This document shows, in pieces, positions 1,607 to 35,700 of a DNA stretch of 64,000 bases. The notes under the pieces were generated by a model. It had not been told where the DNA came from and did no database searches. It was given only the letters and a program-made list of their open reading frames with translations. Source of the stretch: an uncultured Coxiellaceae bacterium (GTDB taxonomy: Bacteria > Pseudomonadota > Gammaproteobacteria > DSM-16500); contig CAZBHW010000012.1 in NCBI GenBank assembly GCA_964492045.1, positions 14,431 through 78,430 on the forward strand, written 5' to 3'. The position numbers and the translations under genes were made by a program. The first letter of the stretch is position 1, and each line of letters opens with the position of its first letter.

Positions 1607-1609
1607 TGA

Positions 1610-7984: not shown

Positions 7985-8026
7985 TGAAATTCTAAATAAA
8001 TAATTGAACGAAGCAGGGGTAAAACA

Positions 8027-9010: not shown

Positions 9011-9098
9011 ATCGCAAATAGGGTAAAAACAACTCTATTTATGATTTTATGAATATGAAAGAATTTGATCAGAAACCGATAATTATAATAGGCATACC

Positions 9099-10295
9099 AT
9101 GAGCCAATCACGATCGTCATTCGCTGACTTTGCAGCGCAAAATAGTCCTTTTAGCCAGTTTGCAGTTGAAAATATTCTTAATGCCAATTCAAATAATGCA
9201 TATCATTCATTTTTATCCGCAAGTTCACAAGGCTTGCGTACCACAGCAACAACCACAGCCTACAGACAACCTTTTGCAGTGGCTAACGCGTTTCCATTGC
9301 AGTTACCCATTATTACTCCAAGCGCAGACGTCATATCATTCAAATTAAATCCGCCCGAACTAAGTTTACCGATATTTACTTCTGATCTACAGATAAATAA
9401 TAACTCATCGAATGCGTGTAACAACTTCATGGCAAAATCGCAAAACGAAAGCACGCTAAAGCAGCCGTCTTCTCTCTTGCAGGCAGCATCAAATACGGCT
9501 ATCAGGCAATTTGGATTACGAGCGCTTGATAGTGTCATCGAAGGTAGTCGAGGTTATCTCGGGACAAAAATTCGCTTAGCGGGTCTTGTAACCGATGTTT
9601 ATGATCGAACGCAGAGCGATGACTTATCAGATCTAGATCCAGCATCATTATTTGTAATCGCGTCATTAGCCGGCATCTCTAAATCAGTCACTGCAACGGT
9701 TGGTTACGGAACAGTTGTCACGGAAGGTGTTTTAATGGCTGGTGCCTCAGGCGGTGCAGGTCTAATACCGGCCACTATATTCGTCTCGGCAGCACTACCA
9801 GCGGTTGATACGCTAAGCAATATTGTGGGTGATTCAGTTGAATTAGCATGCTTGCAAATTGTTAAAATGTTGAAAAACTATGTTGATGCCACACATACAG
9901 TGCAGAGTCCTTCATCTATTCAGTCTTCAAATACAGAAGAACAAGAGAAACTATTCCGCATCACCTTAGACATCATCAAAAAATCCGATCCACGTGACCT
10001 ATCAGTTCGTGATTGCATAACGGTGACAAAGCGAGTAGAGGCCGTTAACTCTTTGAAAGCTACGGTTCAGAGTATGCAGCGCAATGGACTGAAAACAAGT
10101 GACGCAGAAGCTGGCGATCTTATGCACGAGATATCTGTCATTGAGAGCAAAATGAATAGTGTCGTACGTGAGTGCGTACTCAATCGCGACCACCGCAGTG
10201 GCGTTTCGAACAATCCATCAGCATTATTTTCGACAGCTAACACTCCACCAATGGCGGCAACAAATATCATCCCAAGTAACGTAATATTAAACTAA
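9099..10295 (+). CDS. hypothetical protein with a central Ala/Gly-rich hydrophobic hairpin; candidate secreted effector
   Basis: 398-aa ORF with no recognisable domain. It has a hydrophobic block FVIASLAGISKSV...LMAGASGGAGLIPATIFVSAALPAV and a polar Ser/Asn/Pro-rich C-terminus. Confidence 0.6.
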   Translation: MSQSRSSFADFAAQNSPFSQFAVENILNANSNNAYHSFLSASSQGLRTTATTTAYRQPFAVANAFPLQLPIITPSADVISFKLNPPELSLPIFTSDLQINNNSSNACNNFMAKSQNESTLKQPSSLLQAASNTAIRQFGLRALDSVIEGSRGYLGTKIRLAGLVTDVYDRTQSDDLSDLDPASLFVIASLAGISKSVTATVGYGTVVTEGVLMAGASGGAGLIPATIFVSAALPAVDTLSNIVGDSVELACLQIVKMLKNYVDATHTVQSPSSIQSSNTEEQEKLFRITLDIIKKSDPRDLSVRDCITVTKRVEAVNSLKATVQSMQRNGLKTSDAEAGDLMHEISVIESKMNSVVRECVLNRDHRSGVSNNPSALFSTANTPPMAATNIIPSNVILN

Positions 10296-10310
10296 TTAGA
10301 GATTCCTATC

Positions 10311-18404: not shown

Positions 18405-21071
18405 TCAGCAAGAGTCTTTTATAAATACGCTATCCATATTAAACTGGCCTGAATTTTCCTGCCTTTTCATGTGGCGTGTTGTACTCGCTCTTTTATATCT
18501 GCACATGGGGCAGTTTCTGCCTTGTGTTCTGTGAAGAATCGAATCCCGCCACTCGTGCCCACAATTACCTTTCCACCAAACAACTCTACCAGAACCTGGT
18601 GTGAAGTGCTCAGGGAGTAATTGGTCATTTTTAGATGAATGCCATTCATTTGCTAAAACAGGAAATAAATAATTTAAGGATTTATTATAATCAACATGCT
18701 TTCGTTTTGAATAGTAATCATTGAAATGCGATGTCGCTATCCACTCATCTTTTGCCATGTACATGTTTATCTTTTCTAAAATTATCGGAGGGATACAATC
18801 ATTATTCTTTAAAATTATATTTAGTATTTGCTTGATTGTTGAGATATTCATCTCTCTTTTTTTAACAGAAATATCATTTGCACCTAAAATGGGAAGGCCT
18901 TCTTCTCTTATCCTTATCAGGAATATGCTTGCAGTCAGTGCTAAATACTTTTCTTGATCTTTTTCATGCTTGTCTTGGTGCCAATATACGCCGTCAAATT
19001 CAATACCGATATTAAATTCAGGGATGAAGATATCGACTTCGCGCTTATTGATAATAACCCTGTGTTCTACATTCTCGAATATTGCTTTCAATTCACAAAA
19101 TATTCTTAACTCTGGTATAGAGTATGCTGGATTGCATTTAGGGCATCCGGTGCCTTGCGTTCTGTGATTTATAGCCGCTAACCACTCATGATCATCACCT
19201 TTTGGGCATTTCCACCAAACTTTTTTGGCTGTACCAGGCATAACATCATATGCAGTAAGTGTTCCATTTTTCGCTGAGTGCCATTGTTCAGCGACCAGAG
19301 GATAACGTGTTGCTAGACAGTTAGATTTTGCAAGTTTTTGCCCTGCACAAATAGGGCAACCATTTCCACTTGCTCTATTGTTAAGTGTTGCTTTCCACTC
19401 ATGATCGTCGCCTTTGTGACATTTCCACCATATCATTTTATTTGCGCTAGGTAAGACATCAAATGGTGTAAGCTTTCCATTTTTAGTTGGATGCCATTCC
19501 TTAGCTAGTCTTGGATTAGCTGCTCCTAAGCAATTAGATATAGCCACTTTCTGATTGGAGCATATTGGACAGCCTATTCCTTTATTACGATTTGCAATAA
19601 CTGCATCCCATTCATGGTCATCGCCTTTTGGGCACTTCCACCAAACTTTTTTTCCCGAACTCGGTGTCACTGTGTAGGGAGTTAAAACGCCATTCTTCGT
19701 GGGATGCCATTCATTCGCGAGTTTTGGATTTAACGTCGCTAAACAATTCGAGTTAACCACTACTTGGCTTGCACATACTCCGCAGCCATGACCATTTGAT
19801 CTACTTACTACACTCGCTTGCCAAACATGATCATCCCCTTTTGGGCATACCCACCAAGCTTTTTTTAATGAACCAAGAGTAACTTTATTAGGTGTTAACA
19901 TCCTATTCTTTGTTGGGTGCCATTCACTAGCAAGTTTAGGATTTAGTGTCGCTAGGCAATTTGATTTGACGACTTTCTTATTTGAGCAGATTGGACAACC
20001 TGTCCCGTTGTTTCGATCTTCAACAGTGGCTTGCCAAACATGATCCTCACCTATTGAACATTTCCACCATACTTTTTTACATGATCCAGGAATTATTTCG
20101 AAGGGGGTTAATTCCCCATTTTTGGTAGGATGCCATTCACTGGCAAGGTTCGGATTTAATGTTGCTAAACAATTTGATTGAACGACAACTTTGTTACTGC
20201 AGACACCACAGCCATGACCCTTGCTTCTGGTTTTAACGGCTGCTTGCCATACATGATCAGTGCTTTTCGAGCATTGCCACCATGCAACTTTGTCGGAAAA
20301 GGGGGTTACATCATATGGTGTAAATGCCCCGTTTTTTGTGGGGTGCCACTCCTTTGCTAATTCAGGATGTAACGTTGCAAAACAATTAGACCAAACTGCT
20401 TTCAGGCCAGCGCAAATGGGACAGCCTGTTCCCTGGCTTCTATTTGAAACCATTGTTTGCCACTCGTGATCATCGCCATTTGGACATTTCCACCAAACTC
20501 TCTTGTGTGAGCCAGCTACAACATCTCGTGGGGTTAGCGTTCCATTTTTAGTAGGGTGCCATTCACTAGCTAATACCGGATTCGTAACAGAGAGACAATT
20601 TGAGTCTGAGACTCTCTTGCCTGAGCATATCGGGCAACCATTGCCTCCCGTTCTTTTAGAAATTACCGCGTCCCACTCATGATCATTATTTACCTGACAT
20701 CTCCACCAAGCTTTTCTATGTGACCCAGGTAGAACATCTTGCGGAGTTAGAGTTCCATTTTTAGTCGGGTGCCATTCATCAGCTAATTTAGGGTTAACGG
20801 TTGCCAAGCAGTTAGACATAACAATTTTTTTACCAGAACAGATAGGGCACCCTTTGCCTTGACTTCTGTTAGAAATCATGGCCTGCCATTCATGATCATC
20901 ACCCTTTGAGCACTTCCACCAGGCGATGTCTTTTGAGTATGCGGATACATGAAATGGGCTAAGCGCCCCATTTTTAGTTGGATGCCATTCTTTGACCAGT
21001 TGTGGGTTCTTTGGTACAAAATTAGATTTAATCATGCGCGTATGAATACCAAATGACGCAAAGTTCGGCAA
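18405..21071 (-). CDS. zinc-ribbon (DUF4379-like treble-clef) repeat protein with an embedded PD-(D/E)XK / Vsr-DUF559-like nuclease motif
   Basis: 888-aa ORF. Nine consecutive 71-aa repeats match EWHPTKNGxLTPxxVxxGSxKKVWWKCxKGDDHEWxAxVxxRxxGxGCPICSG. They are followed by REVDIFIPEFNIGIEFDGVYWH and a tenth zinc ribbon (EWHSSKN...CPMC). The track start is TTG at 21069-21071. The first in-frame ATG is at 21035. Confidence 0.8.
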   Translation of the reverse strand: MPNFASFGIHTRMIKSNFVPKNPQLVKEWHPTKNGALSPFHVSAYSKDIAWWKCSKGDDHEWQAMISNRSQGKGCPICSGKKIVMSNCLATVNPKLADEWHPTKNGTLTPQDVLPGSHRKAWWRCQVNNDHEWDAVISKRTGGNGCPICSGKRVSDSNCLSVTNPVLASEWHPTKNGTLTPRDVVAGSHKRVWWKCPNGDDHEWQTMVSNRSQGTGCPICAGLKAVWSNCFATLHPELAKEWHPTKNGAFTPYDVTPFSDKVAWWQCSKSTDHVWQAAVKTRSKGHGCGVCSNKVVVQSNCLATLNPNLASEWHPTKNGELTPFEIIPGSCKKVWWKCSIGEDHVWQATVEDRNNGTGCPICSNKKVVKSNCLATLNPKLASEWHPTKNRMLTPNKVTLGSLKKAWWVCPKGDDHVWQASVVSRSNGHGCGVCASQVVVNSNCLATLNPKLANEWHPTKNGVLTPYTVTPSSGKKVWWKCPKGDDHEWDAVIANRNKGIGCPICSNQKVAISNCLGAANPRLAKEWHPTKNGKLTPFDVLPSANKMIWWKCHKGDDHEWKATLNNRASGNGCPICAGQKLAKSNCLATRYPLVAEQWHSAKNGTLTAYDVMPGTAKKVWWKCPKGDDHEWLAAINHRTQGTGCPKCNPAYSIPELRIFCELKAIFENVEHRVIINKREVDIFIPEFNIGIEFDGVYWHQDKHEKDQEKYLALTASIFLIRIREEGLPILGANDISVKKREMNISTIKQILNIILKNNDCIPPIILEKINMYMAKDEWIATSHFNDYYSKRKHVDYNKSLNYLFPVLANEWHSSKNDQLLPEHFTPGSGRVVWWKGNCGHEWRDSILHRTQGRNCPMCRYKRASTTRHMKRQENSGQFNMDSVFIKDSC
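19107..20999 (-). repeat. coding tandem repeat, 9 units of 213 bp (71 aa), diverged
   Basis: The period was established by counting residues between successive EWHPTKNG motifs. The units are roughly half to two-thirds identical at the protein level by eye. Confidence 0.8.
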
Positions 21072-21112: not shown

Positions 21113-21117
21113 ATTTC
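21113..21117. repeat. left copy of the 5-bp target-site duplication ATTTC
   Basis: atttc immediately precedes the TGTCATTTG terminus. An identical pentamer lies at 30193-30197. Confidence 0.75.
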
Positions 21118-21246
21118 TGTCATTTGCCAAAGAGGAGTTCAGCAAAATTGTGTAATTATAGGGTATATTTTGTCAAAGACAAGTTCAGCATTGACAGAGA
21201 GGGGTTCCTTAACTAGCATTCCTGCCAAAGAAGAGTTCTGCAAATT
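21118..21246 (+). repeat. left transposon end: three spaced direct copies of an about 22-bp putative transposase-binding site
   Basis: The three copies are tgccaaagaggagttcagcaaa (21125-21146), tgtcaaagacaagttcagcatt (21171-21192) and tgccaaagaagagttctgcaaa (21223-21244). Confidence 0.7.
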
Positions 21247-21258
21247 CAGGGGCAACAA

Positions 21259-23103
21259 ATGGAGTTCGGGATACGGCAAGGTGATATCGTTATGTATGAC
21301 GATATGAAATACAGAATTAAATCCCCATTAAGCCTGGAACGAGTGCTGATGGAGTCAGTAGATACCGGAGAATCAAAATCAGCTAATTTATCAGATCTAC
21401 GTCCTGTTGCCATCGAAGAGCAACGGCCAAACAAAGTTTGTGTTGTATCCGTATCATCTGAAGCCTGGGCAGAGGCAAAAAAACGTGAAGAGGCTATCAA
21501 GGAATTTGTATCTTGTGTTTGTTCTAGGCTGGACGCTGAAAATATAGGTGAAAAGTTAGGTATTACTGGGCGTCAGGTTTACAAACTGATTCAGCGTTAT
21601 CAAAAATCTGGGTGCAAACTGAATGCACTACTACCTGTACAGCCTGATGGAGGAAGCGGTAAGAGCCGCATTAATAATGAAATAGAACAAATTATCCAGG
21701 CGACGATTGATGAGCTTTATCTTACAAGGCAAAAGTATAAAATTAGTATAGTTGTCGAAGAAATTTTACGGCGCTGTCATTATGCTAATTTACAACGCCC
21801 ATCCGAAAGAACCATTCGTAGAAGAATTAACAATATTGCAGCTAAACTAGTCGTTGCTAAGAGAGAAGGTGCTAAAATTGCAAGAAATAAATATTCACCA
21901 ATATTTGGAGAATTCCCAGAAGTAACCAGTCCCCTGAAAGTGGTTCAGATTGATCATACACCAGTTGATGTAATCATCGTTGATGAAATCCTCAGAAAAC
22001 CGATTGGTCGTCCTTATTTAACTATAGCTATCGATGTTTTCAGTCGCTGTATTACAGGATTTTGCTTGTCGCTGGAACCACCATCTGCTGTATCCGTAGG
22101 TCTTTGCCTGACTCACTCAGTCTTCGATAAAGATGCATGGCTTGCTGACAGAAATATTGTGGGTGCTTGGCCAATCTGGGGAAAACCAATGGTGATTTAT
22201 GTCGATAATGCGAAAGAGTTTCATAGTGAAGCATTGCAGAGAGGTTGTGATATTAATGGAATTCGTATTGAGTATCGACCATTAGCACAACCGCAGTATG
22301 GTGGTATTGTTGAGCGCGTTATTGGTACTATGATGCAATTAGTCCATCAATTGCCAGGTACCACTTTTTCCAATACAGCTGAACGTGGTGGTTATCAATC
22401 TGAAAAAAATGCAGCGCTAACATTAACAGAGTTAGAGCATTGGCTAACAATTGCAATTACAGAATATTATCATCAAAAAATTCATGGTGGTCTGTGTGCA
22501 CCACCAATTGCAATGTATACGGCGGGTATTTTAGGAGATGAGAATCGTATAGGTTGTGGTTATCCGCCACGTATTCATAACAAGCGTGGTTTTTTAATTG
22601 ATTTCTTACCCATTGAAAGACGTACGATTCAGCGGCATGGTTTTATGCTGGATCACATTTCATATTATAGCAACGCATTGTCACCGATGATTGCAAATCG
22701 TAAAAAGCATGAACAATATATTATTCGGCGTGATCCACGCAATATAAGTTGTATATATGTCCTTGACAAGCGAAGTAATGAATATCTGGAAATTCCATAC
22801 CGTACGCTATCAAGGCCTACCATTACATTATGGGAGCATCGTCAAGCATTAAAGTATTTACGTGAAAAGGGATTAAAGCAACAAGATGAAAACCTAATAT
22901 TTCAAGCTGTCGAAAAGTTACGAATGATTACTGATAGCGCTGTTGCTAATAGCAAGCAAGCGCGGCGTCAACATGAAAGAGCGAAAAATTTATCTTATGT
23001 GATAAAAAAAGAAGACTCAGTTGAGAAAGATAATGAGCCAATTGTTTCCGAAGCTGACAATTACAAGTCGGCTAAAAGATTTGAGGATATTGAAATATGG
23101 TAG
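21259..23103 (+). CDS. tniA: TniA/TnsB-type DDE (Mu-like, rve) transposase
   Basis: 614 aa with a DDE context: VVQIDHTPVDV, VIYVDNAKEFHS, GGIVERVIGT. It starts 13 bp after the last end repeat. Confidence 0.85.
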   Translation: MEFGIRQGDIVMYDDMKYRIKSPLSLERVLMESVDTGESKSANLSDLRPVAIEEQRPNKVCVVSVSSEAWAEAKKREEAIKEFVSCVCSRLDAENIGEKLGITGRQVYKLIQRYQKSGCKLNALLPVQPDGGSGKSRINNEIEQIIQATIDELYLTRQKYKISIVVEEILRRCHYANLQRPSERTIRRRINNIAAKLVVAKREGAKIARNKYSPIFGEFPEVTSPLKVVQIDHTPVDVIIVDEILRKPIGRPYLTIAIDVFSRCITGFCLSLEPPSAVSVGLCLTHSVFDKDAWLADRNIVGAWPIWGKPMVIYVDNAKEFHSEALQRGCDINGIRIEYRPLAQPQYGGIVERVIGTMMQLVHQLPGTTFSNTAERGGYQSEKNAALTLTELEHWLTIAITEYYHQKIHGGLCAPPIAMYTAGILGDENRIGCGYPPRIHNKRGFLIDFLPIERRTIQRHGFMLDHISYYSNALSPMIANRKKHEQYIIRRDPRNISCIYVLDKRSNEYLEIPYRTLSRPTITLWEHRQALKYLREKGLKQQDENLIFQAVEKLRMITDSAVANSKQARRQHERAKNLSYVIKKEDSVEKDNEPIVSEADNYKSAKRFEDIEIW

Positions 23104-24041
23104 AGGAAAGTCCTGATCATCTCATACCTGAGATTAGAAATTTATTGAAACTGAGTCAGCCTGAACGAATTGAGTATATTCAGAGAGACAATTGGATTGG
23201 ATACACTAGGGCAATTGAAGCATCACTTAAACTCCACGAGTTATATTCTTACCCGCAGCGACAGCGCATGCCAAATATTTTAATCATTGGGCCAACTAAT
23301 AATGGAAAAACAATGATTATCGAAAAATTCTGCCGAGTTCATAAACCGATCGTTAAAAGACAACACATCGAAGTTGATATATATGATTTAGGCGAGCAAA
23401 ACTTGCTTGAAGAAATGCCAGTGGTATCAGTACAAATGCCACCATCACCTGATACGAGACGTTTTTATTTGGCGATACTTGAAAAATTTAAAATGCAGAA
23501 TGTATATATTCGTTATCACACTGGCCCGCTAGAAATCACAATTATTTCTCTATTTAAAAAATTTAAAGTAAAAATGTTATTGATTGATGAAATTCACAAT
23601 ATTCTCGCTGGCCGAAATGATAAACAACGCGAGTTTCTAAATGTATTGCGATTTCTTGGGAATGAATTAAAAATTCCACTAGTGTGTGTTGGCACTAAAG
23701 ATGCGTACTTGGCAATTCGTAGTGATCCGCAATTAGAAAATAGATTTGAACCTTTCCCATTGCCATTATGGAAAGCTGGTCGTGAATACGATTCTTTATT
23801 ATCTAGTATAGTAGCAGTTTTGCCGCTAAAGAAACCTTCTAAATTAAATATGCCATCTATCTCAGAAAATATTTTGGCAAAGAGCGAAGGCATTCTTGGG
23901 GAAATGTTCACTTTACTTCGTCGTGCAGCTATTAGTGCTATTCGTACTGGAAAGGAAGAAATAGATGAGATGGCTTTAAGGTTAGCTGATTATTATTCCC
24001 CATCAGAACGAAGACAGCTATTTGAGCGAAATATTGCCTAA
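23097..24041 (+). CDS. tniB: TniB/TnsC-type AAA+ ATPase transposition protein
   Basis: 314 aa with Walker A GPTNNGKT and Walker B LLIDEIHNIL. It overlaps tniA by 7 nt. Confidence 0.85.
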   Translation: MVEESPDHLIPEIRNLLKLSQPERIEYIQRDNWIGYTRAIEASLKLHELYSYPQRQRMPNILIIGPTNNGKTMIIEKFCRVHKPIVKRQHIEVDIYDLGEQNLLEEMPVVSVQMPPSPDTRRFYLAILEKFKMQNVYIRYHTGPLEITIISLFKKFKVKMLLIDEIHNILAGRNDKQREFLNVLRFLGNELKIPLVCVGTKDAYLAIRSDPQLENRFEPFPLPLWKAGREYDSLLSSIVAVLPLKKPSKLNMPSISENILAKSEGILGEMFTLLRRAAISAIRTGKEEIDEMALRLADYYSPSERRQLFERNIA

Positions 24042-24248
24042 GTGATTTCTTACTATATTTAGCAACATGAGTTATTCGATAAGTTAAAACAACTGCATGA
24101 CTTCTCACTCTTATTGTGAGTATCACAAAGGATATTGTCTCATTATTATGCTGAGTTAAATTTATTGAATATTGTATATGGTGCTTAAAATACAGGCTGT
24201 TCTATTACACGAATTTACTAGCTGAGCATAATATTAATATCAGTATAA

Positions 24249-24482
24249 TTTCTTTTATGCGGATCTCCGCATAACCGAAAGGGCTGGCTTTTTGCTGACA
24301 ACATTGCTGGCGCTGAAGTTGCTGCGACCTTATTTAGCTTACTTGAGACATTCAAATACCATGACATTGAGCCTTATGATTGGCCTCGGTATGCGTTACA
24401 GCAAATGCCGCTGCGCCAGTCCGACGATAAAATCGAAGCTCTGTTGCTATTCAATAACGATCGCGCGTTGATCGCTAGATGA
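24249..24482 (+). pseudogene. IS66-family transposase C-terminal remnant
   Basis: My translation reads ...HNRKGWLFADNIAGAEVAATLFSLLETFKYHDIEPYDWPRYALQQMPLRQSDDKIEALLLFNN...*, which matches the conserved IS66 Tnp tail (KNWLF...YSLIET.K.NG.EPY.YL..VL..LP). No N-terminal portion or start codon is present. Confidence 0.7.
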
Positions 24483-24629
24483 GCTAGTGACGGGTAGTTG
24501 ATTTAGCGGATACATTGCAAGCATTAAATTGGTCATGCCCAAACTGATTCGCAGCTGATTTTTTACTTGACCTGAATAAAGTATTCGCATGACAATGCGA
24601 GCTTAAATAATTCATTGGAGACGATCTCT

Positions 24630-25037
24630 ATGTCCATTAAAAAAACACTATTCATGATCACCGCGACCATACTTGCCGCCATCCCATTTCAAGCGCAAGC
24701 CGGTGATTTAATCGCCAATAACCGCACAAATTATGATTCCACCCTGATCACAAATGGTGCAGTTTGCTCCACCATTTTGGGTGAAATCGGCATTGCACGC
24801 GCACACACCGAAGGCAATGTTATCCCGGATCGCAAAGTCAGATTAGCTTGCGGCGCGCACAAACGTGATTGTGTTGCTGCCGTTAAAATGACAGCAAATT
24901 GCTCCGGCAGAACAATTGCAACAGTAGTATTCGATGTTGACGCTGGCATTATCAGCGTCACACCAGAAGCAGGTGAAACTCAGTTCAAAATTACCGGCAG
25001 TGGCTTTACATCAACAGTTGAACAGTTAACCAAGTAA
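24630..25037 (+). CDS. small secreted protein (signal peptide, 4 Cys), unknown function
   Basis: The ATG at 24630 has a GGAG RBS. The signal peptide is MSIKKTLFMITATILAAIPFQAQA. A strong hairpin follows the gene. Confidence 0.65.
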   Translation: MSIKKTLFMITATILAAIPFQAQAGDLIANNRTNYDSTLITNGAVCSTILGEIGIARAHTEGNVIPDRKVRLACGAHKRDCVAAVKMTANCSGRTIATVVFDVDAGIISVTPEAGETQFKITGSGFTSTVEQLTK

Positions 25038-25048
25038 TCATCAAACTA

Positions 25049-25078
25049 TTTACCCTGCGCAATCTTGCGCAGGGTAAA
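25049..25078 (+). terminator. strong hairpin (about 13-bp stem) downstream of the secreted-protein gene
   Basis: tttaccctgcgcaa tc ttgcgcagggtaaa forms the stem. There is no clear U-tract, so the terminator function is tentative. Confidence 0.45.
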
Positions 25079-25237
25079 TCCATCCTCTAAATATTATCTT
25101 ATTATTAATTTTTATCTTCATTATTCTTTTGCCTGCAATATTTATTGCTAATTCCACTATAGGGCCCACTGTGAAGCTACGTCCTATAGAAACTAATTCA
25201 CAAATTTCAGAAATTAAAAAATGACACGGAGTATAGC

Positions 25238-25658
25238 ATGAAGCTTAAAAGTCTAGCGTTGCTGGGTGCAATGTCATTCAGCATTATTCCACTTGCAGCA
25301 TTTGCTGATCTCACCCTCACAAACAATAGCAACTCACCAGCAACAGCATCAGTAACTGGCAGTCCGTGTTCCAGTGCCGCAGGAAACATGGGAGTTCTAT
25401 AAGCCGCATGCCGGGAAAGTTGTTGTGAAAGATTGGATCTAGAACATGTATTGCAAGAACGGTTGCACTGGTCATGTTTACATGAGCAGAAACTGCAGCG
25501 GCAAGAGTATCGCAGAAGTGAGAGCAAGTACCAAAGAAGGCGTCACTGATGTTCAGGTTGCTGACGGTTCAGCTGATGGATACAAAATTGTTGGCCACGG
25601 TCAGAATGTTTCGATCGAAGGTGGTCCAAGCAGAAAATGGTATAAATTACTTTTCTAA
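25238..25658 (+). pseudogene. disrupted paralog of the 24630-25037 secreted protein
   Basis: The N-terminal piece MKLKSLALLGAMSFSIIPLAAFADLTLTNNSNSPATASVTGSPCSSAAGNMGVL ends at a stop at about 25400. The C-terminal piece (25446-25658) continues in another frame with CKNGCTGHVYMSRNCSGKSIAEV, paralleling CGAHKRDCVAAVKMTANCSGRTIATV. At least one frameshift plus an in-frame TAG lie between the pieces. Confidence 0.6.
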
Positions 25659-25708
25659 GATACTATCGAACAACATCATTCCCGCTAACGCGGGAATGAT
25701 GATTCAAG

Positions 25709-27019
25709 CTAAGCGAGATTCCACACCAACTGCGCGGCAAGAACATCGGCACTGCCATTCACACTACCATTTGTTGCAACAATTTCATCACCTGTTACCT
25801 GCGCTGGTGGTATGACGTGTGCTTTATTGATAAAGATATGCGTCCATCCCAAATCAAATCCGATGGTGGGTGTTGATTGAAAATGCCCACCAACTGCAAA
25901 AGCATAATGATCATTATCCGGCATTTTCACATTGCGATAAGTATTGCTCACCGGTGTTTGATCGTAACCAATACCGCCACGCAAGGTAATTTTATCAGTA
26001 ACAAAATAATCACCGCCCACAGAAACACTAAATGTATTATGAAAATGCTGGGGGATTGTTACCACAATACTTGTGCTCGGATCTGCAAATTCCAGACCCG
26101 CAACATTTTGCAAAATAAGATTTCGTATCGTATTCCATTGCGTGAAAATCACGCTGCCCATCACGGCAACCTGAGGATTTAATTTATGATATCCACTAAG
26201 CGCGGTATACGGCGGTAAAGTGATATTAAGCTTGGCTCTGCTGGATTTAATTGGTCCGTAATCACCTGCTAATGGGCCGCTAAACGCACTATCCCCGATA
26301 AGATGGTGGACCGCCTGAGAATGATAGCTTAAGCCAAAGCGTGAGTTTTCATTGATGTCATACATAATACCTGCATGCATGCCATAACCAGTATCATTAG
26401 CTGTGTTAATACCATCGCTATCCAGCTCTTTGTCGCCAAGTGTTGCCACCTGATCAAACTCGCCTTTCATCACCTGAATATCCGGGCCAATACCAAAGGC
26501 AAGCTTCTCACCAAGCTTAACAGATAATACAGGGCTGATATCGATGACTTGTACTGAAGTCTCAGTGGATGCATAGCGTAAAATGGTTGATGTTCCATAA
26601 CTCGTTTTCTGGCCAAATGGAACGGTGACACTAAAACCGAAAGCGACGACATCACTCAATGGTGCAACATAATGCAACGCTGGTATCAAACCATAACCGC
26701 CGCCTTGTGCCGTAACCGGCTGAGGAGCGCCAACCAGAATTGTATTCATGCCAACCGTGCCTGTGTATTTGAAACTTGTGAATACATTATCTGCAGCTAT
26801 AACTAGTTGTTGATCTTTGAATCGATTTAGGCCTGCTGGATTGTAAAACGCGGTACTGGCGTCGTATGCAGCTGCTGCATAGCCAGCGTGAAAATTAGCG
26901 ACATTGTTTGCATCTTGTTCCCATAATTGGAAAGCTGATGCCATGGCATGAGATGAAAATACTAACAAGCCCGAAACAGTTAGCGCAGCGGCCAATTTGC
27001 TAAGTTTAAAACAGCCCAT
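25709..27019 (-). CDS. FadL/TodX (OMPP1) family outer-membrane hydrophobic-compound transporter
   Basis: 436 aa with a signal peptide ending SSHAMASA and the N-terminal FQLWEQDANNVANFHAGYAA typical of FadL. It has a beta-barrel-like alternating pattern and an aromatic-rich C-terminus. Confidence 0.75.
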   Translation of the reverse strand: MGCFKLSKLAAALTVSGLLVFSSHAMASAFQLWEQDANNVANFHAGYAAAAYDASTAFYNPAGLNRFKDQQLVIAADNVFTSFKYTGTVGMNTILVGAPQPVTAQGGGYGLIPALHYVAPLSDVVAFGFSVTVPFGQKTSYGTSTILRYASTETSVQVIDISPVLSVKLGEKLAFGIGPDIQVMKGEFDQVATLGDKELDSDGINTANDTGYGMHAGIMYDINENSRFGLSYHSQAVHHLIGDSAFSGPLAGDYGPIKSSRAKLNITLPPYTALSGYHKLNPQVAVMGSVIFTQWNTIRNLILQNVAGLEFADPSTSIVVTIPQHFHNTFSVSVGGDYFVTDKITLRGGIGYDQTPVSNTYRNVKMPDNDHYAFAVGGHFQSTPTIGFDLGWTHIFINKAHVIPPAQVTGDEIVATNGSVNGSADVLAAQLVWNLA

Positions 27020-27127
27020 TGTTACCTCCTGACATGGAATATCCCGCCTTGGCGAGCTTGAAATAAATGGCTATAAGGATACCTTATCTGCACACCAAAA
27101 CAACTAATTCACCACACAGGAAATAAA

Positions 27128-27358
27128 ATGGCCGTGACACCGTCTAATATGCTGCCTTTGGGCACAAAATCACCTGATTTTTGTTTATTAGATACGCGAA
27201 CTGGCAAAGAATTATTACTTGATGAATTAAAATCTGAAAGCGCAACTGTGATTATGTTTATTTGTAATCACTGCCCGTATGTCATGCACATACAGAATAA
27301 GCCGGCAGAAGCTGTGCGGGAATATCAGAAAAAAATATCAGCGAACATGCTGATATAA
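27128..27358 (+). pseudogene. truncated thioredoxin-fold (redoxin/AhpC-TSA-like) gene
   Basis: The 76-aa ORF carries the CxxC motif (FICNHCPYV) but ends about 25 aa after it. Proteins of this fold are normally at least twice as long. Confidence 0.5.
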
Positions 27359-27448
27359 ATAGATCACATTGCCAGTGAATTACTTCATGCGGGTCAAGAA
27401 ATATTTAGCTGCATATAGGCGTTGGAATTACGAGCTGGATGCTTGGTA

Positions 27449-28942
27449 TCAATGCCCCATCTCCAGTCCCGCAAGTTTCGCCGGTTTCGGCGCAAATAAC
27501 ACGACAGTCGCAGCACAAACAAGCACGAGAGAAGCGACAACAAACAGCTGGTTTGTTGCCAGCATTACACTTTGGGTATCCACCATTTGATTCAGCGTAA
27601 TGACCGGTATTTCTGAGCTGGGATGCATCATTGAAACTAGTTCATTGCGGTTAATCGCAGCATGATCACTCCAGGCAGAAGTAACAATCGATGCAGCAAA
27701 TGCGCCGGATAATGTGCGCAAAAAATTCATGAGACCAGCAGCGGATGCAATCTCATTCGGCTCTACAGCAGAAAGCGCCAACGCACTAAGCGGAATAAAA
27801 AAGAATGGCATACCAATGCCTTGAAATAATAGCGGCACGGCAACTTGTGCGAATGTCATATCAATACTGCCAAAGGAACGGACGAAGGTCATGCATCCCA
27901 TCCACATGACTCCGCAAAACACCAGTTTGCGCGGGTCCACCTTCGAAGCAAGTTTGGCGGCAATCGGCGCGACAAGAACGGCAAACATGCCGTGAGCTGC
28001 CATCGCCATTCCTGATGTAGTGGCGGTGTAACCCATATTGGTTTGCAGCCAAAGAGGTGTCAGGACAATCGAGCTAAAAAACGCGCCGAAGGTGAGACTG
28101 GTAGCCATCACACTTATACTGAAACTGCGATGCCGGAAAATATATAAATCTACAATCGGATTTTTTTCAGTTAATTCCCAAATCAGAAATGCTGCGAAAC
28201 CTATGATAGCAGTGATGGCCAGAATAATAATTTCAGGTGATGAAAACCAATCAAGTTTTTGTCCTTCATCCAGCATCAATTGCAAGGAACCAACAGACAC
28301 GATTAACAGTACTAACCCTACGACATCAATTTTTGATTTAACTGTCGCTGTTTCAAAGGGCTTCAGCAGCGTCCAGATCATGTAACAACACACGACGGCG
28401 AGCGGTACATTAATGAGAAAGATCCATGACCAGCCCCAGTTATCACAAATATAACCGCCGATAATGGGGCCAAGAATAGGTGCGATCAGCGTCGTCATAC
28501 TCCAGATCGCCATCGCTGCCATGCGTTTTTCTTTGGGGAAAGTTGACATTAAAATGGTTTGTGAAAGCGGCATCAGCGGGCCGCCGGCAAGACCCTGCAA
28601 TATGCGGCCGACGACCAGCATACCAAGTGAATTTGCGAATCCGCAAATCGCTGAACAGAGGCCGAAAAATAACAAACCAGCAGCAAATACTTTTACGGTA
28701 CCAAAACGGTTGGCAAGCCAGCCGGTTAGCGGCACGCTGATCGCCTCGGCAACGGCATATGAAGTGATGACGTAAGTGCCTTCGTTGCTTGATATCGCCA
28801 ACCCGCCCGCAATATGCGGCACAGAAACATTGGCTATCGTCATATCCAGCACCACAATAAAATTTGAAGCGGCGAGCATCACGGCAGCAATAATCAGACC
28901 GCTGCCTGCTAATTGTGGTTTGGTATGCATCTCGTGATTCAT
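27449..28942 (-). CDS. emrB: DHA2 (EmrB/QacA) family MFS multidrug efflux transporter
   Basis: 497 aa with about 14 hydrophobic segments and an N-terminal ANVSVPHIAGGL motif region typical of EmrB. It abuts emrA (1-nt overlap). Confidence 0.85.
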   Translation of the reverse strand: MNHEMHTKPQLAGSGLIIAAVMLAASNFIVVLDMTIANVSVPHIAGGLAISSNEGTYVITSYAVAEAISVPLTGWLANRFGTVKVFAAGLLFFGLCSAICGFANSLGMLVVGRILQGLAGGPLMPLSQTILMSTFPKEKRMAAMAIWSMTTLIAPILGPIIGGYICDNWGWSWIFLINVPLAVVCCYMIWTLLKPFETATVKSKIDVVGLVLLIVSVGSLQLMLDEGQKLDWFSSPEIIILAITAIIGFAAFLIWELTEKNPIVDLYIFRHRSFSISVMATSLTFGAFFSSIVLTPLWLQTNMGYTATTSGMAMAAHGMFAVLVAPIAAKLASKVDPRKLVFCGVMWMGCMTFVRSFGSIDMTFAQVAVPLLFQGIGMPFFFIPLSALALSAVEPNEIASAAGLMNFLRTLSGAFAASIVTSAWSDHAAINRNELVSMMHPSSEIPVITLNQMVDTQSVMLATNQLFVVASLVLVCAATVVLFAPKPAKLAGLEMGH

Positions 28943-29868
28943 TATGCTTTGCTACCAATATTGATATCAACATGCATGGATAAGCCAACGCGCAGTGGAT
29001 ATTGGGCAAGACTGTCTTTGTCGATTGCAATGCGTATGGGTAAACGCTGCACGACCTTAATCCAGTTGCCCGTTGCATTCTGTGCCGGAATAATCGCAAA
29101 TGAAGATCCCGTGCCGCCTGAAACACCAACAACCTTGCCGCGATAAGTGACGTCTGAACCGTAAATATCTGCGCGCAGCTCAACTGGCTGTCCAGGTTTC
29201 ACTTTTACTAACTGCACTTCCTTGAAGTTGGCAGTCACATAGACTTCTGAAACAGGCACAATCGAAAGTAAATAAGTACCGGAGGATACACGCTGACCAA
29301 GCTGCACTTCGCGCTTGGCGATCACGCCGTCAATTGGTGCACGCAGCACCGTTCGCTTCACTTCAAGCCGTGCTGCTTCGAGACCGGCCTTGGCGAGATC
29401 AGCATTGGCCTTGGCAACCTTGAATGTGTTTTCAGAATTATCAAGCTCTTCTTTTGAGACAAAACCTGAAGTCACCAATTTGTTACGGCGGTTTAAATTC
29501 GCTTGCGCACGCCCAAGCTCTGCGTCTGCACGCGCAGCATTTGCATCCGCCTGTTCCAGCGCAATTTTGGCATCCGAATCATCAAGAATGACGAGAATAT
29601 CACCAGCTTTTACATTCTGTGTATCTGTCACCAAAACAGATTTAACTGTACCTGCAGAACTCGAAGAAACCTGCGCAATATCCGCCGCTACATAGGCATT
29701 ATCAGTGGTGACATGCTTGGATCCTATCAGCAGCCAGTAACTGCCGCAAACGAGCACCCCTGCGACAACCACCACTGCCAGCCTGATGAGCCAGCGCTTG
29801 CGTGTCTGCATTGCGCTATTATTCGCCGAAATGAGTGGCGTGATATTTTCTTCTTGTGCTGACTGCAT
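28942..29868 (-). CDS. emrA: HlyD/EmrA-family periplasmic adaptor
   Basis: 308 aa with a single N-terminal TM, TTDNAYVAADIAQVSSSSAGTV and a coiled-coil middle region. Confidence 0.8.
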   Translation of the reverse strand: MQSAQEENITPLISANNSAMQTRKRWLIRLAVVVVAGVLVCGSYWLLIGSKHVTTDNAYVAADIAQVSSSSAGTVKSVLVTDTQNVKAGDILVILDDSDAKIALEQADANAARADAELGRAQANLNRRNKLVTSGFVSKEELDNSENTFKVAKANADLAKAGLEAARLEVKRTVLRAPIDGVIAKREVQLGQRVSSGTYLLSIVPVSEVYVTANFKEVQLVKVKPGQPVELRADIYGSDVTYRGKVVGVSGGTGSSFAIIPAQNATGNWIKVVQRLPIRIAIDKDSLAQYPLRVGLSMHVDINIGSKA

Positions 29869-30027
29869 GGTATATGCCGAACCCAGTTATAATTATTCGG
29901 ACAAATATACCCCAACTTATACCCAATTTCATTTAAATCATGCCATTCCTGACGGCTTGCTCAGCGTAACTATTCAGTGACCCTAATCCTTTAAGCCAAA
30001 ATATCAATGACATAGCTCAAAAAACTG

Positions 30028-30056
30028 GCGTGAAACTAAAATGCCCTGTGAGACTG
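30028..30056. terminator. hairpin with flanking A/T runs just inside the right transposon end (possible bidirectional terminator)
   Basis: aaaatgccc tgtgagact gggcatttttt. Confidence 0.35.
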
Positions 30057-30143
30057 GGCATTTTTTATCTTTTTGCTCTAGCTCGCATCCGTTCGTGCGT
30101 GAGTAGATGGGCAAAAGGTTACGGTGGAGAAATAAATCCTCTC

Positions 30144-30192
30144 GTTGCTGAACTACTCTTTGTCATGCTGAACTCCTCTTCGACAAATGACA
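30144..30192 (-). repeat. right transposon end: two contiguous inverted copies of the end repeat
   Basis: The two copies are gttgctgaactactctttgtca (30144-30165) and tgctgaactcctcttcgacaaatgaca (30166-30192). They are reverse complements of the left-end sites. Confidence 0.75.
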
Positions 30193-30197
30193 ATTTC
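30193..30197. repeat. right copy of the 5-bp target-site duplication ATTTC
   Basis: atttc immediately follows ...CAAATGACA. Confidence 0.75.
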
Positions 30198-30440
30198 TCA
30201 CGCAAATCAGCGTCGTCCAAGTTCTGATAATAGACGTTATCGGTCGTGTATAAATATTGTATATGTGTGTTACATGATGTCACACGATGCGTGACATCGC
30301 GCATAGTTATGTTAAAATGGCTAAAGCGGTGTTAAGACGAGCAGCACCTAATCTGTGCCGGCAGCATTCGCTAAACAAGATTAGGGTCGTGGGTAACCGA
30401 TGAGGCATAAAGTTTAAATTGAATTGAAGAGAGGAATCGT

Positions 30441-31496
30441 ATGCAACGGCTCGGTATTGATTATACGCTGGTCGCTGACGCGGCTGAAAAACTGACTGCA
30501 CAAGGCGAAGTCCCAACGATTGATCGCATACGAGTCTTCCTGGGCGGCACCGGTAGCAACACCACCATTTCAAAATATTTACATCTTTGGCGCCATAATA
30601 CGGGGCAGAGTCATAAATCAGAGCCCGCAAATTCCATCAATACGTCTGATCCAGTGCAGCAGGTGGTGACACGCGTCTGGCAACAACTCCGTGAAGAAAC
30701 AGATGCGGAAATTGAAGCCATCAAAACCAGCACGCAAACACTCATCACGGAATCTGAAGAAAAAGCGGCGCACATGACACAAGAGTATGAAAGGGTAGCC
30801 GCATTGTGTAATGGGTATCAGGAACAACTGCGGTTATCAGAAGCGAAATCTGCCGTGCAGCAATTCGATATAAACCAGCTGCAGCGAGAGCAGGCAATAC
30901 TTGAAGAACGGAACAAAGGTCTCGCGCAGCGTTACGCTGATTTGGAATTAACCATGGCCAAACAGCAAGCGGATCTCACGCAAGCCCATCACAATGAAAT
31001 GAATTTGCTGATTGAAAAATCAAATGCACAAATAGCCGCTCTCGAAAAATTAATCGCTCAACAAAAAAGTCATGCAGAAGATGAGCGTGTTAAACACATG
31101 CAAGAAACGGATCATCTCAAAACCAATCAGCAAAAAATAAAAAAAGATTACGAACTTTTACAGGCAGTATCTGCATCTAAAGATATAGAATTGATGGAAC
31201 TAAAAACCCAGCTAATCGCTCTCAAAAAAGAGAACGAGATGCTTTCTACGCAGGTTCAATCCCAAGAAAAATATTGGGGACTATTTGAGAAAAACAGCCA
31301 AGTCACCAATAATATATGGTCTGAATTAAAGGACATTCCCAAATTTGATTTTAACTTACCTTATATCAGTTTAATAAGTGATATACAGAGTAGTATGAAT
31401 CTTTCCATGGAAAGTCTAGGCAAGGTAACGCAGGATGCAAAACAAACCATAGAATTATTCAAGAATATCAGCATCATTGATATGAAGCATGAATAG
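30441..31496 (+). CDS. KfrA-like DNA-binding protein (KfrA_N domain plus long coiled coil)
   Basis: The N-terminus GIDYTLVADAAEKLTAQGEVPTIDRIRVFLGGTGSNTTISKYLHLWR matches the KfrA N-terminal pattern. The rest is rich in Q/E/K/L heptad-like sequence. Confidence 0.7.
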   Translation: MQRLGIDYTLVADAAEKLTAQGEVPTIDRIRVFLGGTGSNTTISKYLHLWRHNTGQSHKSEPANSINTSDPVQQVVTRVWQQLREETDAEIEAIKTSTQTLITESEEKAAHMTQEYERVAALCNGYQEQLRLSEAKSAVQQFDINQLQREQAILEERNKGLAQRYADLELTMAKQQADLTQAHHNEMNLLIEKSNAQIAALEKLIAQQKSHAEDERVKHMQETDHLKTNQQKIKKDYELLQAVSASKDIELMELKTQLIALKKENEMLSTQVQSQEKYWGLFEKNSQVTNNIWSELKDIPKFDFNLPYISLISDIQSSMNLSMESLGKVTQDAKQTIELFKNISIIDMKHE

Positions 31497-34087: not shown

Positions 34088-34873
34088 TTAATAACTTATT
34101 TCTGAAATCACGCCAATTGTTACCCATTTCTTCAGCATTGTAGCAGCTGCGATAGCAACGATATCCTCATTCATGAACTGACATAGTCCTTCACAAATAT
34201 CCGCAAAGCTTGAATCCGATATCGCAGCATCTAATGCCCAAGCCTCATCATTTGGCATGGAATTAAAATGACTGATCAATTCATGGCGCCAGAATAGCCA
34301 TGTTATAGGAGAAGAGTGTTGTGTTAGTGCCATTGTACTGTCTTCATTTAACGTAGATTGCCAAAAATCTATCACATTCCAATGAAACTGAAATCGATGC
34401 ATTGATGGATGAAAAATAAAGTGCATCTCTGCCCATGCATCCGGTGGGATGAGTGATATCTGTTCGAGCGTAAAGACTTTTGCATCTTGCGCGTCGAAAA
34501 CGAGCGTCATTATCCAGTCTAGTTGTGCTATTTCGTGAAGATATGGAAATGATTTAGATAAATCACACAATTGTATAAAATCAGGGAATCTATCGCCATA
34601 CCAGCGTATGGATCGGAAACATGAATTGTTTTTATCGATATAAGTCGCGGCAATAGCGTTAAATTCATCATCACCCAAGCAAGTGCGAAGAAATGGAAAA
34701 GTACTGGATAAAGCTTCTAGTAACCGCGTTTTATAGGCATTAGCGTAGATAGCTAATCTTTCAACCGCGTGGAATTTTTCTGTGCTTACTACGTGTGTGA
34801 CAATTATACTCGAATCAGATTGCAATAAATATTGCTGAAATGAATCTTGAATCTGCTTTAAACCTGTCATCAT
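34088..34873 (-). CDS. bufC: DUF2063-family RiPP maturation partner (BufC/HvfC-like)
   Basis: 261 aa with an N-terminal LAIYANAYKTRLLEAL pattern typical of DUF2063. It overlaps the DUF692 gene by 4 nt. Confidence 0.7.
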   Translation of the reverse strand: MMTGLKQIQDSFQQYLLQSDSSIIVTHVVSTEKFHAVERLAIYANAYKTRLLEALSSTFPFLRTCLGDDEFNAIAATYIDKNNSCFRSIRWYGDRFPDFIQLCDLSKSFPYLHEIAQLDWIMTLVFDAQDAKVFTLEQISLIPPDAWAEMHFIFHPSMHRFQFHWNVIDFWQSTLNEDSTMALTQHSSPITWLFWRHELISHFNSMPNDEAWALDAAISDSSFADICEGLCQFMNEDIVAIAAATMLKKWVTIGVISEISY

Positions 34874-35700
34874 GCCACCGCTGTCAATGCGTTTTGCGCA
34901 ATCATTCGAGCATAATTTAGCTCGGTGACCAATGATTCAAGTGGTGGAATATTATCGTCACGTTCTATCATTGTTGATACAAAACCAAAATGTTTAATGG
35001 CATCAGCGTATAATTTCCAGACCGGATCAATAATATCTTGATCATGCGTATCGATAATGTAATTACCCATGTTGGAATGTCCCGCAAGGTGGAATTGGAA
35101 AACTCTATTTTTTGGTATATTAGTTAGAAAGGTAGAAGGATTAAATCCGTGATTTACAGAACTGACATAAATATTGTTGATATCCAATAAAATGTGACAA
35201 TCGGCTTGATTGGTAATTTCACTAATAAATTCCCATTCAGTCATCTGTGATTGTTGATACTCTATATAGCTCGATACATTTTCAATTACTATTTGCCGGC
35301 CGAGAAAATTTTGAATTTCCTGAATACGACCAACAATATGCTGAATAGATTCCTCTGTGTATGGGAGCGGCAGAAGATCATGTGTATTCTTTCCATGAAT
35401 GCCAGTCCAGCATAAATGATCTGAAATCCATTTTGGTTTGATACGTTCGCTGAGTTGTTTAACTTGTCGTAGATAGTCAAAATCGATTGGATCCGTACTG
35501 CCGATAGACATCGAGACACCATGCATCACTACTGGGTATCGTTCACAAATTTGATTAAGGTAATAATGCGGCTTGCCGCCCGGAACAAGATAGTTTTCAG
35601 TAATTACCTCAAACCAATCAACCGGAGGATTGGACGATAATATTTGTTCGTAATGACTTGGTCGTAAGCCCAAACCAAATCCAAGTTTTTGCCTATTCAT
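34870..35700 (-). CDS. bufB: DUF692 / MNIO-family (MbnB-like) multinuclear iron oxidase, RiPP maturase (BufB/HvfB-like)
   Basis: 276 aa with GLGLRPSHY, WFEVITENY, HGVSMSIGS and FHLAGHS motifs typical of DUF692 TIM-barrel enzymes. Confidence 0.8.
   Translation of the reverse strand: MNRQKLGFGLGLRPSHYEQILSSNPPVDWFEVITENYLVPGGKPHYYLNQICERYPVVMHGVSMSIGSTDPIDFDYLRQVKQLSERIKPKWISDHLCWTGIHGKNTHDLLPLPYTEESIQHIVGRIQEIQNFLGRQIVIENVSSYIEYQQSQMTEWEFISEITNQADCHILLDINNIYVSSVNHGFNPSTFLTNIPKNRVFQFHLAGHSNMGNYIIDTHDQDIIDPVWKLYADAIKHFGFVSTMIERDDNIPPLESLVTELNYARMIAQNALTAVA

Follow-up and report, generated by a model that had tools for sequence, protein, structure and literature searches.

The window analysed here is a 64,000-nucleotide (64-kb) stretch of DNA from an uncultured Coxiellaceae bacterium (GenBank assembly GCA_964492045.1, contig CAZBHW010000012.1), and at positions 21118-30192 it contains a transposon of 9,075 bp with the transposition genes tniA and tniB. 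We hypothesise that this element is an active member of a clade of the Tn5053/Tn402 family which, without TniQ, acts as a "resolution-site hunter" of the core site of a tyrosine recombinase, a reading to which we give a probability of roughly 0.7. The clade is previously undescribed; its TniQ target selector and its TniR/res module have both been lost. Coordinates are positions in the window; L-numbers denote related loci or contigs fetched for comparison.

Element boundaries and recent movement

The element is delimited by 27-bp terminal inverted repeats, TGTCATTTGCCAAAGAGGAGTTCAGCA and its inverse, which are complementary at 25/27 positions (93%), and a search for this terminus at ≤3 mismatches gave two matches in the window against 0 expected from 100 dinucleotide shuffles. 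A first-pass annotation, made from the letters alone, had already described near-perfect inverse termini bracketed by ATTTC pentamers, and both features are confirmed (Table 1). It had also described three spaced sites at the left end and two contiguous sites at the right; these are present as 19-nt repeats, together with a weaker fourth left site at +75. The left layout (+8/+54/(+75)/+106) is kept in L004, L005 and L014, and the right layout (+8/+28) in the clade and in classical relatives. Since relatives with quite different repeat sequences have the same layout, the architecture of the ends is functional and not a product of chance. Duplications of 5 bp are also found in relatives (CCATG, ATAAA and CTTAA).

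An exact-protein look-up of TniA returned three other contigs. The copy in L001 has 0 mismatches over 9,075 positions, is flanked on both sides by GTTGT, and has left-flank genes unrelated to those of the window. The presence of an identical element at two sites with different duplications (ATTTC and GTTGT) indicates that this tniQ-less element transposed very recently, in agreement with the first-pass annotation, which called the insertion evolutionarily recent. The insertions in L003 and L182 are the same as that in the window. The L002 contig (9,076 bp) starts at the first base of the element and ends one base past its last, with 1 mismatch, the extra base being T, the same as the element's first base. 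Ends that fall at the element boundaries are the pattern that assemblers produce for a repeat in more than one context, and L002 is possibly a repeat present in several contexts of the sample, or a circular form. Scans for the terminus gave no match in a metagenome collection (exact terminus) or in viral contigs. When the element and the two flanks in the window were compared with PLSDB by megablast, the outcome was either nothing or fragments of 73-77% identity, which indicates that close relatives are not among the curated plasmids.

Transposition genes and the absence of TniQ

The first-pass annotation assigned the element to the Tn7/Tn5053 group, with tniA and tniB as its only transposition genes, and our analysis supports this. 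Both genes are intact, the start of tniB overlapping the stop codon of tniA, and TniA is 45-47% identical to classical Tn5053/Tn402 TniA (over residues 62/93-614). The TniA residues D232/D316/E352 are invariant in a 40-sequence alignment, and TniB has a Walker A motif (GPTNNGKT) and a Walker B motif (LLIDE). There is no TnsA-like open reading frame (ORF) in the element, the distance from the left end to tniA being just 141 bp. We also noted an antisense ORF of 105 aa inside tniB (23594-23911, - strand); the tniB genes of L004 and L014 have antisense ORFs too (119 and 112 aa, respectively), and this could equally be a compositional artefact. Tn5053 has been reported with ardD encoded antisense inside tniA (PMC3533173).

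In Tn5053, TniQ acts with TniA and TniB in cointegrate formation (PMC7765201), and surveys have found tnsD/tniQ in 73-97% of elements per clade (PMC8649781). We built a hidden Markov model (HMM) of TniQ from five Pfam-confirmed TniQ ORFs, which was then iterated, and fetched the loci of relatives from species-representative genomes. The HMM matches the ORF directly after tniB in approximately 70 classical relatives and has no match in the window locus, L001-L009, L011-L014, L016 or L069. Scanning the whole 64-kb window in six frames gave noise only (best 5 bits), no Pfam TniQ domain was found among the element genes, and TniQ was also not found in the flanks of L001 and L004. The gap at 24042-24614, which the first-pass annotation had singled out as the place where a sensitive HMM might reveal a tniQ homologue, has no ORF and no TniQ signal. 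There is no TnsD/TniQ signal in the element, and no search was aimed at TnsE. A Resolvase-domain ORF is absent from the element genes and from precomputed Pfam results on the L001 gene calls. The earlier statement that the element has no target-selector or resolvase gene is therefore borne out by Pfam and by our own HMM.

Several candidates for a hidden or substitute selector were considered and rejected. The extra N-terminal region of approximately 60 aa on TniA was rejected as a replacement for TniQ, as the TniQ-bearing relatives L010 and L015 have it too. A C-terminal extension of TniB is ruled out in this role because the difference amounts to a few residues. Two 392-aa ORFs in L004, tried as divergent TniQ-like selectors that the window element might have lost, gave <1% in an hhalign comparison with the TniQ profile and have no Pfam match.

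In a neighbour-joining tree of 143 TniA proteins the TniQ-less elements associated with Int and KfrA cluster among TniQ-bearing lineages, and the window TniA is accordingly nested among TniQ-bearing TniAs. In a 38-taxon bootstrap analysis, a 16-member TniQ-less clade was recovered in 90/100 replicates and its 11-member core, which includes the window, in 100/100; the nearest TniQ-bearing relatives have only approximately 50% TniA identity. Some members consist of tniA and tniB alone, namely L192A (2,986 bp), L192B (3,162 bp) and L013 (3,362 bp). L192A has inverted repeats that match at 25/25 positions and just 39 bp between its tniB stop and right end, and L192B has a perfect duplication, CTTAA. 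Because TniQ is missing from the whole clade (16 lineages, including two-gene elements), its absence is a trait of the clade and not the result of decay. Separately, a gene for an IS110-family transposase (PF01548/PF02371) lies between tniA and tniB of one clade member (L011:2218-3258). There is also a second small group of TniQ-less TniAs (L012, L016, L069 and L095), in which L012:211-4463 and L069:145-4159 retain a serine resolvase; in L012 a 183-aa SEC-C-motif protein is encoded between tniB and the resolvase.

The interior as exchangeable cargo

Where tniQ would be expected the first-pass annotation saw about 200 bp of non-coding DNA and then an IS66 remnant, and on both points we agree, the non-coding DNA measuring approximately 220 bp. 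The nearest relative, L004 (TniA 91% identical), is homologous to the window element from the left end through tniA and tniB, with a break exactly at the stop codon of tniB, and then again over the final 48 bp before the right end. The interior of L004 contains the two 392-aa ORFs mentioned above, which are mutually dissimilar and have no homologue in any other locus. That of L184 (TniA likewise 91% identical) contains a BlaI-like repressor as cargo, and that of the window element approximately 6 kb of cargo, whose NttC-like ORF is called as a 135-aa gene in L001-L003. Thus three cargo variants are found on one tniAB core with its ends. The homology break at the tniB stop in L004, together with the different cargo of L184, argues that the whole interior is exchangeable cargo, and the same break rules out the IS66 fragment as the agent that removed tniQ.

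One possibility is that the element is a decayed derivative that depends on others, having lost tniQ (and tniR/res) by an IS66-associated deletion, and that it moves only when a related helper element supplies TniQ, as happens with Tn6606 and with class 1 integrons that are tni-defective. Defective Tn5053/Tn402 elements are known to be mobilised in trans into res sites (PMC7765201), the IS66 remnant does lie close downstream of tniB, and only 64 kb of host DNA are visible. However, tniQ is found in 0/16 clade lineages, among them elements with perfect repeats or duplications and elements without room for a third gene, and TniQ was found neither in the window nor in the L001 and L004 flanks. 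Moreover, the low TniA identity of the nearest TniQ-bearers means that a cognate helper is not evident, and the homology with L004 stops at the tniB stop codon, not within a remnant of tniQ. We therefore regard trans-dependence as quite improbable. The first-pass annotation had left open whether the element was a decayed, trans-dependent derivative or used an unrecognised targeting mode; the clade-wide loss of TniQ and the site- and orientation-specific insertions described below make the second much better supported.

Insertion beside a core site

Outside the element, beyond its right end, lies the motif CTGATAA-N6-TTAnCrG (consensus), which has 7-nt inverted arms around a variable 6-nt spacer and of which the 64-kb window holds one good match (30224-30243). 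A relaxed match, CATAATGATCATTATC, at 25902-25917 inside the FadL-family cargo gene is probably due to chance. The window, L001 and L004 share this motif at near-equal distance despite their unrelated left flanks, and in all, eight independent right ends lie 30-33 nt from it or, in one TniA sublineage, 15-16 nt (Table 2). The arms are conserved across the eight insertions, and the spacers and the DNA between end and site are unrelated. The eight include L183, where the right end is that of another member of the clade and has a terminus like that of L014; a solo right-end relic on Aquicella lusitana plasmid 4 (NZ_LR699117.1), with no tniA/tniB within 35 kb on that side; and L189, a 3,620-bp element with a perfect ATAAA duplication. 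The two short distances occur in L013 and L192B, whose TniAs are 72% identical to each other, and since both fall in one TniA sublineage, the spacing follows the transposition machinery. The tni-distal end faces the core site in every case (8/8). A tyrosine-recombinase gene, usually after kfrA, is found on the site side wherever the contig is long enough; the L192 contig ends approximately 0.5 kb past the core site, so the gene could not be checked there.

Table 2. Distance between the right end of the element and the core site in eight insertions.
Insertion	Right end to CTGATAA (nt)	Core site
Window	31	CTGATAA TAGACG TTATCGG
L001	30	CTGATAA TAGCCA TTATCAG
L004	32	CTGATAA TGGCTG TTATCGG
L183	33	CTGATAA TCGCCG TTATCGG
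Aquicella lusitana plasmid 4	31	CTGATAA TGGTGA TTATCGG
L189	32	CTGATAA CTAATC TTACCAG
L013	16	CTGATAA TGTAGA TTAGCAG
L192B	15	CTGATAA TGTTGA TTAGCAG

In L192 (9840-16047) the two minimal elements (2,986 and 3,162 bp; TniAs 53% identical) stand head to tail, 60 bp apart, at one core site, which suggests that several lineages target one place, with no mutual immunity between them. The left ends of different clade members in L184 (297-305) and L192 (9831-9839) abut the same 9 nt, CTATATAGC, and the similarity goes no further.

Sublineages with 59-66% TniA identity (L005/6, L169, L177, L179, L187 and L009) carry their own divergent int and kfrA genes, with a GATAA-N6-TTATC site between the two wherever sequence is available. 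In six independent insertions their left end lies within approximately 13 bp of the start codon of the target kfrA. In L005, the one case with both flanks (duplication CCATG), approximately 100 nt separate the right end from a GATAA-N6-TTATC site that immediately precedes the target int; this end still faces the core site, at a different distance.

The core site as a recombination site

The kfrA-like gene that follows the core site in the window is itself followed by a gene for a 401-aa tyrosine recombinase (Int). Its catalytic set (R231, K257, H341, R344, H367 and Y376) is invariant in seven homologues of 39-89% identity, and a phmmer search of Int against PDB sequences gave no match at E ≤ 0.01. 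We consider the int gene to be a candidate for the trans-acting marker of the target site. The core site, the kfrA-like and int genes after it and the cargo are additions to the first-pass annotation.

From the palindrome onwards L183 matches the window at 99.914% identity over 5,843 bp, and to the left of the palindrome the two are unrelated; 3/4 mismatches lie in the core-site spacer. An identity breakpoint at the core site is the signature of a crossover. In L189 the arms can be extended to 14 nt, and at L189:13000-13870, on a Tra-encoding plasmid contig, a MqsA/RelE toxin-antitoxin pair lies between two core sites, CTGATAACTAATCTTACCAG and CTGATAATTAGTATTATCGG, an arrangement that resembles the dif modules of Acinetobacter plasmids. 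The motif also occurs just upstream of the int genes inside the elements of the 59-66% sublineages and in their target. Its architecture is dif-like (ATAA-N6-TTAT), and it shares with dif modules the inverted arms around a 6-nt spacer, a breakpoint at the site and a module between two sites. From these comparisons we conclude that the motif is a putative recombination core site of a tyrosine recombinase, with the co-occurring, catalytically intact Int family as a candidate for the enzyme that acts on it.

The DNA around the element would fit a plasmid. The window has a GC content of approximately 38-42%, in PLSDB the backbone matches only plasmids of Legionella and Aquicella (73-77% identity), and relatives lie on plasmid-like contigs with Rep_3, ParAB and Tra genes. 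The host is most likely a bacterium of Legionellales type, and the replicon appears to be plasmid-like.

The recombination of core sites raises the question of whether the position of the elements was chosen at all. It could have been inherited, with element and flank travelling together as a dif-module-like unit after one or a few ancestral insertions. The crossover signature and the existence of two-site-flanked modules would allow this, as would the several relatives without matching duplications, which are expected if recombination at adjacent sites swaps flanks. Against it, the window and L001 hold an identical element with different, internally matching duplications and unrelated 26-nt spacers, each of the eight ends, which come from lineages with TniAs 52-100% identical, has its own spacer DNA, and L189 and L192B have perfect duplications of their own. 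An inherited position would thus be a considerable surprise to us.

A different question is which factor reads the site, and its identity is the main uncertainty. Targeting may be real and the selector something other than the plasmid Int, for example host XerC/D-type recombinases, promoter-bound KfrA, or TniA/TniB recognising sequence or DNA structure directly. This alternative draws on the dif-like form of the core site (ATAA-N6-TTAT), on kfrA as the immediate neighbour in most targets, on the insertions of the 59-66% sublineages at the kfrA start codon, and on a report that TnsC-type ATPases sense DNA distortion without a selector (PMC10293859). However, in L189 the occupied site is followed by the toxin-antitoxin module, and kfrA-int starts 3.2 kb from the right end, which makes the site, and not the kfrA promoter, the common denominator. 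In addition, an Int gene of the same families is present wherever the contig is long enough, and the core site, compared by eye with the TniA end repeats, has no similarity to them beyond the window lineage. On balance we think a selector other than Int unlikely.

Proposed mechanism

We propose that plasmid core sites read by their own tyrosine recombinase direct the element as follows. TniA would bind the 19-nt repeats whose arrays are seen at both ends, and TniB, an AAA+ ATPase, would engage target DNA and activate TniA, both roles being those expected from the family. The target is the plasmid core site of a tyrosine-recombinase module (usually kfrA-int), with the tni-distal end facing it, as the eight insertions show, and insertion yields the 5-bp duplication that is observed. 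Most likely the recombinase of the target replicon, bound to the core site and bending it, positions TniB directly, and a short TniB assembly may set the fixed insertion distance. Transposition is probably replicative because there is no TnsA. Cointegrates of the window element may be resolved by homologous recombination of the host, giving matching duplications; in the 59-66% sublineages the element's own internal int and core site may replace tniR/res. Resolution through the adjacent core sites of donor and target was rejected for the window and L001 insertions, since it would swap right flanks and break the identity of the duplications, and it might explain the relatives without matching duplications. 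The most specific form of the proposal, that TniA and TniB (approximately 3 kb) suffice for site- and orientation-specific insertion without an adaptor by reading a tyrosine recombinase on a plasmid core site, at a distance set by the lineage (approximately 31 versus approximately 15 nt), is one that we advance tentatively and at somewhat less than even odds.

Several points weigh against the view that these elements are TniQ-independent hunters of core sites. The reader of the site may be the plasmid Int, host Xer proteins, KfrA or TniA/TniB themselves, and it is possible that TniQ acts in trans from elsewhere in the host genome, of which 64 kb are visible. Matching duplications are missing from L013, L014, L192A, L187 and L007/8, and in L004 the duplication is displaced by one base. 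The insertions of the 59-66% sublineages at the kfrA start, and the approximately 100 nt in L005, mean that one fixed-distance rule does not cover the whole clade. Most of the related loci are from metagenome or raw-read assemblies. Finally, the empty-site allele (...GGGATTTATTGAATTTCTCACGCAAATCAGCG...), which the first-pass annotation had proposed to seek, was not recovered by a scan of viral contigs or by a look-up of the left-flank DUF4379 protein, which returned no record.

Features of the window

Table 1. Features of the transposon and of its insertion site.
Feature	Position	Strand	Evidence or remark
Target-site duplication ATTTC, left copy	21113-21117		identical to 30193-30197
Left (tniA-proximal, IRt-like) terminal inverted repeat TGTCATTTGCCAAAGAGGAGTTCAGCA	21118-21144	+	
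Spaced 19-nt repeats of the left end, presumed TniA-binding sites	21125-21241 (array)	+	repeat comparison; 21125-21143 (+8), 21171-21189 (+54), 21192-21210 (+75, weak), 21223-21241 (+106)
tniA, DDE transposase, 614 aa	21259-23103	+	PF09299 (Mu-transpos_C), weak rve, HTH
tniB, AAA+ ATPase regulator, 314 aa	23097-24041	+	PF05621, E = 1.9e-67
IS66-family transposase, C-terminal remnant, 72 codons	24264-24482	+	NCBIfam NF033517, 3e-08, profile positions 343-386 of 387
NttC-like type II secretion substrate with signal peptide	24630-25037	+	PF24268, 2.3e-14
Possible frameshifted second NttC-like gene (weak)	25238-25658	+	28% identity over 60 aa, E = 0.027; no Pfam match
FadL/TodX-family outer-membrane transporter (porin)	25709-27019	-	PF03349, 4.1e-74
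MFS efflux transporter (EmrB-like)	27449-28942	-	PF07690, 1.7e-58
HlyD/EmrA-like membrane-fusion protein	28942-29868	-	HlyD_3, CusB_dom_1, HlyD_D23
Two contiguous 19-nt TniA-site repeats of the right end (+8, +28)	30147-30165 and 30167-30185	-	
Right (tni-distal, IRo-like) terminal inverted repeat	30166-30192	-	
Target-site duplication ATTTC, right copy	30193-30197		
Core site CTGATAA-TAGACG-TTATCGG, outside the element, 31 nt from the right end	30224-30243	+	presumed tyrosine-recombinase recombination site
kfrA-like DNA-binding protein gene of the target replicon	30441-31496	+	PF11740, 4.3e-21
Tyrosine recombinase gene (Int) of the target replicon, 401 aa	31489-32694	+	PF00589; weak XerA/C/D-like matches

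Directly to the left of the insertion (18405-21071, - strand) lies a gene for an 888-aa protein with ten DUF4379 treble-clef zinc-finger repeats (E = 4.9e-207). Further left (175-12965) is a gene cluster of drug-modifying type, with six tandem ORFs of 141-175 aa (the first a GNAT acetyltransferase), an AAC(3)-type aminoglycoside acetyltransferase, a methyltransferase, a 617-aa fusion of kinase-like and AadA_C nucleotidyltransferase domains, a LysR regulator, an arylamine N-acetyltransferase and two large ORFs (398 and 884 aa) without a Pfam match. To the right (34088-35700, - strand) is a bufferin-type maturation pair for a ribosomally synthesised and post-translationally modified peptide, consisting of an MNIO BufB (E = 9.3e-116) and an HvfC-like partner, which adjoins a copper/heavy-metal resistance region with P-type ATPases, multicopper oxidase/CopB and an RND pump.

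Significance and comparison with known systems

The TniAs in PLSDB are classical only (≤47.8% identity), and full-text literature searches on tniA/tniB with Legionella, TniB with KfrA, and res-site hunters with tyrosine recombinases returned nothing describing the present clade. To our knowledge, every pathway of targeted insertion that has been characterised relies on TnsD/TniQ, by itself or with partners such as TnsF or Cas effectors, or on TnsE. Our data point to a mode of targeting that has yet to be described in this transposon superfamily. A clade with precise TniQ-free targeting suggests that an unrelated complex of protein and DNA can put the AAA+ regulator in place, which bears on how target selectors were recruited in evolution. 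The "resolution-site hunter" strategy would be extended from serine-resolvase res sites to tyrosine-recombinase core sites, and a dif-module-like recombination system on Legionellales-type plasmids would be revealed. For engineered site-directed insertion the minimal 3-kb elements offer compact candidates, and the window copy appears to take genes for an efflux pump, a porin and a secreted protein from plasmid to plasmid in an environmental bacterium related to a pathogen group.

The likeness to Tn5053/Tn402 lies in a homologous TniA (45-47%) with TniB directly after tniA, a 5-bp duplication and no TnsA, in TGTC... inverted termini of approximately 25 bp with arrayed subterminal repeats, and in insertion beside a plasmid recombination site with the tni-distal end toward the recombinase gene. 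The geometry and orientation of insertion appear to match the rule of the Tn5053-family res-site hunters, in which IRo is nearest to the target resolvase gene (PMC7765201); here the site would belong to a tyrosine recombinase, and dependence on that recombinase is hypothetical. In contrast to the family, the window element has neither TniQ nor TniR/res, two defining features, its target is a tyrosine-recombinase core site and not the res site of a serine resolvase, and insertions lie at a fixed 30-33 (or 15-16) nt, whereas those of the family fall at points scattered within res. The Tn5053 clade is known to include transposons with serine or tyrosine resolvases, and neither the present clade nor its target is described in that survey (PMC8649781).

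The fixed distance, the orientation, the 5-bp duplication, the asymmetric ends and the packed end that faces the site also liken the window element to Tn7. At attTn7, Tn7 (TnsABC with TnsD) inserts site- and orientation-specifically a few helical turns from the protein-bound sequence and with a 5-bp duplication; its ends are asymmetric (spaced versus contiguous sites), and it is oriented with the densely packed transposase sites toward the selector site. Unlike Tn7, the window element has no TnsA, so that its transposition is probably replicative, and no TnsD/TniQ, and its marked site is on plasmids and not a chromosomal safe site. Staphylococcal Tn552 encodes a DDE transposase (p480) and an ATPase (p271), has no TniQ and is found in plasmid resolution sites; it has its own serine resolvase, BinL, with a res site, and makes 6-7-bp duplications. 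As a DDE and AAA+ element without TniQ in resolution sites Tn552 resembles the present clade by description, and it differs in its resolvase, its res site and the length of its duplications.

Members of the IS1202 family (ISAjo2 group) target dif/pdif sites (Harmer et al., 2023, PMC10132070). They too recur in a single orientation, always the same short distance away from a Xer-type site, on plasmids with site-flanked modules. However, they are unrelated insertion sequences of 1.5 kb with a single transposase, lie 5 bp from the XerC arm, and have no AAA+ regulator and no cargo.

Tn6022 itself encodes TnsF, a catalytically inactive selector derived from a tyrosine recombinase, which operates alongside TniQ and has comM as its target (Faure et al., 2023, PMC10293859). 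Tn6022 and the present clade thus both link DNA binding of the tyrosine-recombinase type to target choice in the Tn7 superfamily, whereas here the recombinase is catalytically intact, as judged by its residues, is encoded by the target replicon (in the window lineage), and there is no TniQ. The same authors speculate that a trans-acting, DNA-bending selector, including a tyrosine recombinase, could attract TnsC, and propose this as the ancestral state (Faure et al., 2023, PMC10293859). If our hypothesis is correct, the clade would be a living example of a DNA-bending selector acting in trans, the state proposed to be ancestral to TniQ-mediated and CRISPR-guided targeting.

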